DNA from: a virus
Taxonomy: Duplodnaviria > Heunggongvirae > Uroviricota > Caudoviricetes
IMG/VR virus record: IMGVR_UViG_2526164667_000023
DNA length: 16,133 nucleotides
Strand: one strand, 5' to 3'
This document shows positions 13,555-14,329 of this stretch, one piece after another; within the stretch, counting starts at the first letter, position 1, and every line of letters begins with the position of its first letter. The translations under genes and the position numbers were made by a program. The notes beneath the pieces were generated by a model. That model was not told the origin of the DNA. It was given only the letters and a program-made list of their open reading frames with translations, and made no database searches.

Positions 13555-13683
13555 TCAAGCCGCTTTTTGTGAATGATTGATGTGAGCTTCAAAGTCGCGG
13601 CGTAGATTTTGAACGCGCTCTACACATCCGCGCATTTCAGCCAAAAGCTTACTAACGGCAGTATAGTCAAACGCTTTAGTCAT
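13555..13683 (-). CDS. Small protein (42 aa, MTKAFDYTAVSKLLAEMRGCVERVQNLRRDFEAHINHSQKAA), second gene of the cI-to-pL cassette
   Basis: Below track cutoff; GAGGGG 8 nt upstream of ATG; begins 15 nt after the stop of the 120-aa gene; followed by the terminator. Confidence 0.45.
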   Translation of the reverse strand: MTKAFDYTAVSKLLAEMRGCVERVQNLRRDFEAHINHSQKAA

Positions 13684-13698
13684 TTTTTTTCCCCTCGT

Positions 13699-14061
13699 TT
13701 AAATGTAAGGCTCAACATCAAGGGCTGCTATTGCTGCGCACAATGCGTCAGGATCGTCAGCATCGATGGCTTGAGCCAGGTCATTAGCCAGTATAAGTAA
13801 CTTATCGATGACAGCGATTTCGCTGGTCTTATCTACACGAAAGTATGGGAGCAGAGCATTACATACGTCTCTGAATGTCCGTAATTCTGCGACAACGTTC
13901 GAAAAGGTAGGATCTTTCTTACGAAGATCCACCAATGGCGCTACTTTAGCTGTTTTCAGCATTGCACTAATCTCGCCAATCATTGTTCCATGCAGACGAT
14001 TAAATTCATCAACAGCTCGGTCATGCAAGCTCTTGTTGATTGGCAATACGTTTTGGGTCAC
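13699..14061 (-). CDS. Uncharacterised protein (120 aa), first gene of the cI-to-pL cassette (the rexAB position)
   Basis: Track ORF; GTG start with strong AAGGAG 8 nt upstream; preceded by about 270 bp of AT-rich spacer downstream of cI. Confidence 0.7.
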   Translation of the reverse strand: MTQNVLPINKSLHDRAVDEFNRLHGTMIGEISAMLKTAKVAPLVDLRKKDPTFSNVVAELRTFRDVCNALLPYFRVDKTSEIAVIDKLLILANDLAQAIDADDPDALCAAIAALDVEPYI

Positions 14062-14329
14062 TAACTATACTCCTTATATAGGTGTTCGCCAACAGATTTT
14101 CAATATGACTTGGGCGATTTCTGAACAATAAGCACGATTTAGCAATGATTAATTGATGTTAAGCACAAATATCTCTACATCGTGCATTTTTAACTATTTA
14201 TACACATAAAATCTAATAAATGGATATAAACCTTATGATGATTTTTCTCAATCGAATTGAATAATGATCTCTATCACATCACCCAAACGTCTCTTCAGGC
14301 CACTGGTTACCAGCTATGTGACGATGAAG

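Follow-up and report, generated by a model that had tools for sequence, protein, structure and literature searches.

The window analysed here, a stretch of 16,133 nucleotides (nt) of tailed-phage DNA (Caudoviricetes; IMG/VR record IMGVR_UViG_2526164667_000023), is the left arm of a lambda-like prophage that is integrated beside ybhC, the same site as in Escherichia coli O26 strain H19. Between its repressor gene cI and its antiterminator gene N, the prophage carries two small genes, which we refer to as the cassette. Both are located on the minus strand. The large gene (13699-14061) starts with GTG and encodes a protein of 120 amino acids (aa), the small gene (13555-13683) starts with ATG and encodes a protein of 42 aa, and the gap between the two is 15 nt. 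The small gene has its own Shine-Dalgarno sequence, GAGGGG, read from the sequence at 13691-13696 on the same strand, 7 nt ahead of the ATG codon. Upstream of the cassette and co-directional with it lies cI (14330-15034, minus strand), for which Pfam gives a helix-turn-helix (HTH) domain together with Peptidase_S24 and RefSeq the name "LexA family regulator". The large gene is separated from cI by an AT-rich spacer of 268 nt (14062-14329, minus strand; 30-35% GC), and the small gene is followed by an intrinsic terminator.

Much of this arrangement had been described in an original prediction, which a model made by reading the letters of the stretch. It proposed genes of 120 and 42 aa, 15 nt apart and each with its own Shine-Dalgarno sequence, and our coordinates and spacings all match this layout; its AT-rich gap of about 270 bp after cI likewise corresponds to the spacer that we measured. 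The terminator that it placed just before the pL promoter is present, but pL itself is found roughly 190 nt further on. Moreover, the cassette was said to occupy the position of rexAB, and this agrees with a second prophage (L010), in which the cI gene of lambda is directly followed by the cassette; lambda has rexA-rexB at this point.

Both open reading frames (ORFs) are real genes under purifying selection. Measured against cassettes that are 73-96% identical in the large protein, the ratio of nonsynonymous to synonymous substitution rates (dN/dS) was 0.05-0.17 for the large gene and 0.07-0.41 for the small gene. Across lineages in which the small ORF is only 24-40% identical, its length (42-45 aa), a heptad-like hydrophobic stripe, an invariant cysteine and the C-terminus are all kept, and a GAGG/AGGAG motif was found 6-9 nt upstream of it in all 17 lineages checked. 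The idea that one or both ORFs are non-genes, with the small one being a chance frame in a region of decaying filler, could be based on the shortness of the 42-aa ORF and on the insertion sequence (IS) elements in this prophage, but it is effectively refuted by the conservation of the small ORF together with its Shine-Dalgarno motif, by its dN/dS and by the retention of its C-terminus; furthermore, both ORFs belong to PHROG families and yield confident structure models.

The two genes are strictly paired. The small ORF was located 12-37 nt downstream of the large one in 35 of 35 loci fetched via the large protein, as well as in every locus added later, and the pairing holds down to about 37% identity of the large protein. 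Neither a gene fusion nor a solitary copy was seen among the loci examined. A fusion by stop-codon read-through was considered and rejected: although the ORFs share a reading frame in the window, the gap does not preserve this frame at other loci. The core of the small gene (13610-13670) shows 93-100% DNA identity to the cassettes L004, L005 and L024, while the large gene reaches only 63-97% in segments of 30 nt. Against L004, the synonymous divergence (dS) was 0.14 in the small gene versus 1.19 in the large gene. Because this contrast is absent against L026, patchy recombination is a likelier cause of the low dS of the small gene than an overlapping RNA constraint.

The two proteins

The large protein is acidic, with an isoelectric point (pI) of 4.9, and has no transmembrane segment (maximum Kyte-Doolittle hydropathy over 19 residues, 1.22). 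In the AlphaFold2 (AF2) model it forms a five-helix bundle with a predicted local distance difference test score (pLDDT) of 82. It belongs to phrog_13858 of the PHROGs collection (E 5e-73), a family listed with "unknown function". In an alignment of 31 members, conservation is highest at the very C-terminus, L[C/G]AAIAALDx[K/E]PYI, which ends the protein in all of them, save for one extra residue in P0043; four divergent members depart from PY[I/V]. The other residues conserved in the family are mostly hydrophobic, with the addition of K39, P51 and D115, and a catalytic-looking set of polar residues was not conserved in this alignment.

The small protein is basic (pI 9.1) and hydrophilic, with a grand average of hydropathy (GRAVY) of -0.5. 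It has no transmembrane segment either (maximum 19-residue hydropathy 0.34) and was assigned to phrog_12503, again of "unknown function" (E 2e-26). Its AF2 model consists of a single amphipathic helix that covers 35 residues (7-41) with a pLDDT of 91. As a lone helix of this length cannot be stable, the small protein needs a partner for stability, and it is probable that the large and the small protein form a complex. The invariant cysteine of the family is Cys20. Moreover, 25 of 28 variants of the small protein have Ala-Ala at the C-terminus, with K, Q or L directly before it, whereas the ten residues ahead of this tail vary. In a screen of C-terminal tags, a terminal Ala-Ala was present in 91% of the 100 strongest ClpXP-dependent tags, which were mostly neutral or mildly positive (PMC10862746). 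The tail of the small protein resembles such a degron, in the manner of the ssrA tag, which may hint towards recognition by ClpXP.

Both proteins are annotated as hypothetical in RefSeq, and searches of Pfam, NCBIfam and PADLOC found no match for either of them, even when the cut-off was loosened to E = 1-10. A Pfam scan of all 31 family members returned scattered matches at chance level and no toxin or antitoxin family. Sequence matches in the PDB, searched with two profiles, were designed helical bundles only and were rejected as a compositional effect. The original prediction recognised no family for either protein, and the Pfam, NCBIfam, PADLOC, PDB sequence and fold searches lead to the same result. 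It had also proposed profile hidden Markov model and structure-prediction searches; for the 120-aa protein these yielded generic helical bundles and no characterised function. We found no description of these protein families, of their all-helical, enzyme-free make-up or of the control element described below in the libraries and literature searched. What is known is the lysogen-slot moron as a kind, probably with an exclusion or toxin-antitoxin-like function.

Control element, terminator and exchange of the cassette

Roughly 50 nt that end at the start codon of the large gene, ATTGAAAATCTGTTGGCGAACACCTATATAAGGAGTATAGTTA followed by GTGACCC, are better conserved than the large protein itself. 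This hyper-conserved control element (14055-14106, minus strand) reads ATTGAAAA...CCTATATAAGGAGTATAGTTA up to GTGACCC. It contains the Shine-Dalgarno sequence of the large gene, AAGGAG (14070-14075, minus strand), 8 nt upstream of GTG, and a palindrome, CTATA-N7-TATAG. The 17-mer TATAAGGAGTATAGTTA occurs once in the window, where the chance expectation is 0, and it was found without a mismatch in 36 of the 60 fetched loci, some of them from lineages in which the large protein shares only 42-49% identity with that of the window.

Two overlapping promoter-like motifs were identified on the minus strand of this region. The first, the candidate promoter P-A, was recognised by reading the sequence and consists of a -35-like hexamer TTGAAA (14098-14103) and a -10-like hexamer TATATA (14075-14080) that ends 13 nt ahead of GTG. 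Its hexamers and their 17-nt spacing are kept across the homologous cassettes, while the sequence between them varies; the -35 form TTG[A/T/C]AA occupies an unchanged position in all lineages, that of Proteus and Providencia included, where P-A reads TTGAAA-17-TATAAC, and the distance from the -10 hexamer to the start codon is 13-14 nt in most lineages. The second, P-B, is a sigma-70-like motif detected by a promoter scan (TTGGCG, 17 nt, TATAGT; 14064-14092), which ends 2 nt ahead of GTG. Elsewhere it takes the form TTGxxx-16/17-TATAGT or TATAAT and scores 11/12 in Xenorhabdus (L006; TTGTCA-16-TATAAT) and 10/12 in the locus L034. The latter carries an insertion of 55 nt between the control element and the ATG start codon and nonetheless retains the element, which argues for a role as promoter or operator and not as a ribosome-binding site only.

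The possible promoter TTGAAA-17-TATATA was already part of the original prediction. The motif is indeed present and conserved, but the start predicted from it is located downstream of the Shine-Dalgarno sequence. A transcript that begins the usual 7 nt past TATATA would exclude AAGGAG, and P-A is thus a tentative assignment; a start from P-B would fall within the large ORF. Either the Shine-Dalgarno sequence serves transcripts that read through from cI, or the start site is chosen in an unusual way, or the palindrome is an operator. A leaderless mRNA was rejected, as no -10-like hexamer is found at the right distance for a start on GTG. Reading the sequence of the control element revealed no convincing plus-strand motif for an antisense promoter, and there was no Rfam match to a known small RNA or riboswitch over the whole window, spacer included.

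At the other end of the cassette, the terminator (13506-13537, minus strand) consists of a GC-rich hairpin and a subsequent UUUUCUUU, 18 nt past the stop codon of the small gene. RNA folding gave AGAACCCGGC-CUCAGC-GCCGGGUUUU, followed by CUUUG. The 40-nt terminator past lambda rexB has the same sequence as the one past the 42-aa gene; because of this identity to the terminator of the lambda immunity operon, the terminator of the window is to be regarded as backbone sequence here. A hairpin with a T-run was found past the small gene in nine of ten homologous contexts, the exception being the Proteus phage Pm34 (L002).

The cassette was found behind 13 repressors of the HTH/S24 type, that of the window included, always co-directional and 200-440 nt after the repressor gene. 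The twelve repressors from other loci include lambda cI itself (L010, L019); pairs of the repressors are mostly less than 65% identical to one another, many of them less than 25%. A direct view of the exchange is given by the Stx1 phage AU5Stx1. This phage has the same cI, with 97% identity from 14278 onward, and on the other side a terminator/pL flank that is 85% identical over 13264-13535, but the insert between the shared flanks differs and holds an unrelated 47-aa ORF. Where its homology stops, the part of the AT-rich upstream spacer that belongs to the cassette (14062-14277, minus strand) begins. The upstream spacer also accompanies the cassette behind lambda cI and behind hybrid cI genes. 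In two such hybrids (L014, L018), about 94% identity to the cI of the window extends over the C-terminal (S24) half (14330-14783), while the N-terminal DNA-binding domain is different, and therefore a recombination point lies inside cI.

In prophages that carry the cassette elsewhere than in the cI slot, the upstream control element can still be recognised as conserved. In L036, the pair is located beside an Arc-like gene and antirepressor genes with Bro-N and P22_AR_C domains, and in L005 beside Bro-N and ORF6N genes, where the Arc-like match was sub-threshold. The pair was further found at the tail-fibre end of Dickeya and Leclercia prophages, and in a chromosomal contig of 150 kb (L049) between an N6-DNA methyltransferase with an IS-transposase-like ORF, the latter assigned by reading only, and eno. 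On the basis of the conserved promoter-like element, whose promoter activity is predicted, the terminator in nine of ten contexts, the backbone flanks with a variable insert and four kinds of context, the cassette is very probably an autonomous two-protein moron that consists of a promoter/operator element, two genes and a terminator. Lambdoid and P22-like prophages carry it at sites that they use for genes expressed in the lysogen. An acquired moron had been proposed originally, and this view is upheld by the exchange at the AU5Stx1 flanks and by the contexts that have no cI and retain the promoter-like element and the terminator.

Two further observations concern the slot. In Providencia prophages (L052 and L054, 3713-4378), cI is separated from the pair by two more small genes, one for a 113-aa DUF3024 protein and one for a 100-aa protein that has no annotation, which shows that several accessory units can be stacked in one slot. 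In the window, an inverted repeat of 20 nt with 80% complementarity (TGAAGAGACTTGAGGGGGAT / ATCACCCAAACGTCTCTTCA; 13399-13418 and 14278-14297) flanks the cassette and the terminator, and its right arm coincides with the point at which the AU5Stx1 homology resumes. Recombination may have left this repeat as a junction or linker; alternatively, it may be due to chance, as pairs of similar quality occur elsewhere in the region.

An exhaustive profile search among 1.84 billion representatives revealed 36 clusters at 50% identity. Word-indexed searches gave 14 clusters for the large and 30 for the small protein, and all clusters with a named organism belong to the Enterobacterales. The hosts are Escherichia, Citrobacter, Enterobacter, Pantoea, Hafnia, Proteus, Providencia and Xenorhabdus, as well as Dickeya and Leclercia. 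Among 5426 complete E. coli genomes, 89 (about 1.6%) carry the cassette; these are mostly Shiga-toxin-producing lineages of O26 and O103, with some isolates from poultry and swine. A single isolated phage, Proteus Pm34, carries it, and the plasmid collection yielded one assembly fragment of 2 kb only, so that there is essentially no plasmid carriage. Such a sporadic and narrow distribution is typical of accessory or defence genes. One pair with 40% identity (L007) comes from a metagenome-assembled genome with the label Saprospiraceae (Bacteroidota), where it is located on a contig of 13 kb. All other named hosts are Enterobacterales; this contig may be mis-binned, or it may reflect a rare transfer.

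Possible functions of the pair

The interval between cI and N is a mosaic hotspot that is known to harbour RexAB and BstA and adjoins one of the most active promoters of the lysogen (PMC8585504). The cassette is a third, unrelated occupant of this interval, after RexAB of lambda and BstA of the Salmonella prophage BTP1. With rexA-rexB it shares the slot between cI and an identical terminator, upstream of OL/pL and N, and the organisation as a two-gene unit that is co-directional with cI. However, there is no sequence homology: a profile of 31 family sequences gave an hhalign probability of 0.1% against each of RexA and RexB. These proteins are also much larger (279 and 144 aa versus 120 and 42 aa), RexB has been reported to be a membrane ion channel (PMC8585504), while both cassette proteins are soluble in the models and have no transmembrane segment, and only the cassette has a spacer of 200-440 nt with its own promoter-like element.

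BstA confers abortive infection and is combined with a DNA-based self-immunity element, aba, a stretch of 63 bp that begins 29 bp ahead of the bstA gene and extends 34 bp into it (PMC8585504). In a comparable position, the approximately 50 bp that span the start of the large gene are conserved beyond the coding sequence, although they may be no more than a promoter with a ribosome-binding site. Unlike BstA, which is one large protein, the cassette encodes a pair of tiny proteins with no PADLOC or Pfam match. P22 sieA and the sieB genes of lambda and P22 are further examples of accessory genes of immunity regions that have their own promoters and are expressed in the lysogen, and the cassette is located in similar regions. 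In P22, genes 16 and 9 flank sieA and mnt (PMC10883804), and the cassette is comparably placed beside Arc/antirepressor modules in L005 and L036. In contrast to SieA and SieB, the cassette proteins have no transmembrane segment, and they match neither family. The likeness to type II toxin-antitoxin systems is one of anatomy: a tight bicistronic operon of adjacent, co-oriented genes with a gap of 12-37 nt and 100% co-occurrence, an acidic and a basic protein, a palindrome at a promoter-like element and a candidate C-terminal degron. The cassette differs from them in that no known toxin or antitoxin domain, DNA-binding fold or conserved catalytic residues were recognised.

Judging from position and anatomy, the best reading of the cassette is that of a lysogen-expressed, toxin-antitoxin-like pair for exclusion or abortive infection; an anti-phage function of the pair is put forward tentatively, as a serious possibility. 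In the lysogen, transcription of the pair would start at the conserved promoter of the cassette, or at the cI promoter with read-through into the pair, or at both of them. The basic helix of 42 aa would dock on the acidic bundle of 120 aa and keep it inactive, and the ssrA-like Ala-Ala tail of the small protein could lead to its rapid turnover by ClpXP. If a superinfecting phage shuts off the expression of host or prophage genes, the small protein would be lost, and the freed large protein might then bind and block a phage or host protein, probably via its C-terminal helix and the PYI tail, with exclusion or abortive infection as the outcome. The assignment of roles could also be the other way round. 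The labile-antidote logic in particular, with the small protein as a ClpXP-labile antidote, is rather doubtful. More speculative still is a previously undescribed immunity system built from two tiny, non-enzymatic, soluble helical proteins, in which a ClpXP-timed helix would be the antidote or sensor for a 120-aa effector that blocks a phage or host protein via AIAALDxKPYI, and the element of about 50 bp would be an autoregulatory operator or an aba-like self-immunity site.

Several findings weigh against an anti-phage toxin-antitoxin-like pair. PADLOC-DB v2 contains no family that matches either protein at E values up to 10, and fold searches with the large protein gave only generic helical bundles. 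An association with a defence island comes from one lineage only (L049/L051). In the literature searched by protein accessions and PHROG identifiers, and in the DefensePredictor supplements, neither protein is mentioned, and more general literature searches led to background papers only. The charge order, with the acidic protein upstream and the basic one downstream, fits equally well an antitoxin that comes first and a toxin that comes second. With regard to the proposed degron, three members of the small-protein family end in IA or VA, and a terminal Ala-Ala has been shown to be necessary but not sufficient for degradation by ClpXP (PMC10862746).

The pair might instead tune the lysis-lysogeny switch of its own prophage, by acting on the repressor, an antirepressor or the induction pathway. 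Most loci adjoin a maintenance repressor, mainly cI, or Arc-like/antirepressor modules, as in L005 and L036, and a ClpXP-timed small protein would suit a switch. In addition, a preprint reports that RexA and RexB of lambda, from the same slot, help the transition from lysogeny to the lytic state (bioRxiv 10.1101/2021.04.19.439022). However, cassettes that are 90-99% identical serve repressors with less than 25% identity to one another, and therefore a particular repressor is not recognised. The cassette is also found where there is no repressor nearby, at tail-fibre ends and beside the chromosomal methyltransferase, and in the window it is still intact in a prophage that looks defective, with two IS insertions. 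We consider a switch modulator unlikely.

A similarly low probability is assigned to a plain addiction module, which would stabilise the prophage or island and not act on phages; one variant of this idea makes the 120-aa protein the antitoxin and the 42-aa helix a toxic peptide. The strict two-gene operon with its tight spacing would agree with such a module, as would the acidic-then-basic order, which is the canonical one for an antitoxin followed by a toxin, the palindrome that overlaps the promoter-like element, as in toxin-antitoxin operators, and the degron-like tail of the small protein. Against this, there is no similarity to the toxin and antitoxin families of Pfam and NCBIfam, and a DNA-binding fold for autoregulation is not recognisable in the model of either protein. 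If the small protein is the labile partner, it would be the antidote and not the toxin; moreover, its hydrophilic character distinguishes it from membrane-active toxic peptides.

Many morons in such prophage slots change host traits. The cassette could thus serve the physiology of the host, for instance stress tolerance, colonisation or regulation, and be unrelated to phages. The same prophage in related strains bears a moron encoding the lipid A deacylase LpxR, and the prevalence among Shiga-toxin-producing O26 and O103 strains, together with the poultry and swine isolates, would be in line with this idea. The family, however, spans Enterobacterales associated with plants, insects and the gut (Pantoea, Dickeya, Xenorhabdus, Proteus, Hafnia), a breadth of niches that argues against a niche-specific host trait. 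Furthermore, neither protein has a secretion signal or a regulator fold, and the best-known occupants of the cI-N slot are anti-phage systems (PMC8585504), so that a role in host physiology appears improbable.

If the anti-phage or toxin-antitoxin reading is correct, the cassette, a unit of 0.8 kb, would be among the smallest systems known and would have no enzyme domain. Its make-up would then imply a mechanism purely based on protein binding and a new target. In Shiga-toxin-producing E. coli of O26 and O103, the cassette could affect which phages become established, Stx phages included. Should no phenotype be found, it would be one more conserved moron of unknown function.

The surrounding prophage

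Towards the early-left genes, the next features beyond the terminator are a candidate pL promoter (TTGCCA, 17 nt, TAAAGT) and OL operator repeats at about 13283-13329 on the minus strand; promoter and repeat scans showed that the repeat TATCNAAATGATAAA recurs at OR (15053-15121). A boxB-like hairpin whose loop is of the GAAAA type, TGGCTGAAAAGCCA, was noticed by eye at 13196-13209 on the minus strand, in the interval that separates N from the candidate pL; by comparison with lambda, it is presumably part of nutL. The N antiterminator (12820-13092, minus strand; Pfam N_peptide, E 6e-32) comprises 90 aa when counted from Met25 of the listed ORF, and RefSeq has a coding sequence of 273 nt here. 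It is followed by sieB (12326-12796, plus strand), which was identified with Pfam. On the other side of cI, the gene in the cro position (15148-15381, plus strand) matches no family, and past it on the same strand lies cII (Pfam Phage_CII).

The early-left (pL) region contains two back-to-back IS elements (8969-12202), with the recombination/kil-cIII genes on one side and sieB on the other. One belongs to the IS3 family, with an HTH_Tnp_1 ORF at 9832-10242 and an rve ORF at 8969-9874, the other to the IS21 family, with istA at 11180-12202 and istB at 10401-11183. With these two insertions the prophage is probably defective, while the cassette and the immunity region are intact. Related O26 strains have IS600 and a TolA-like pseudogene in place of the two IS elements of the window.

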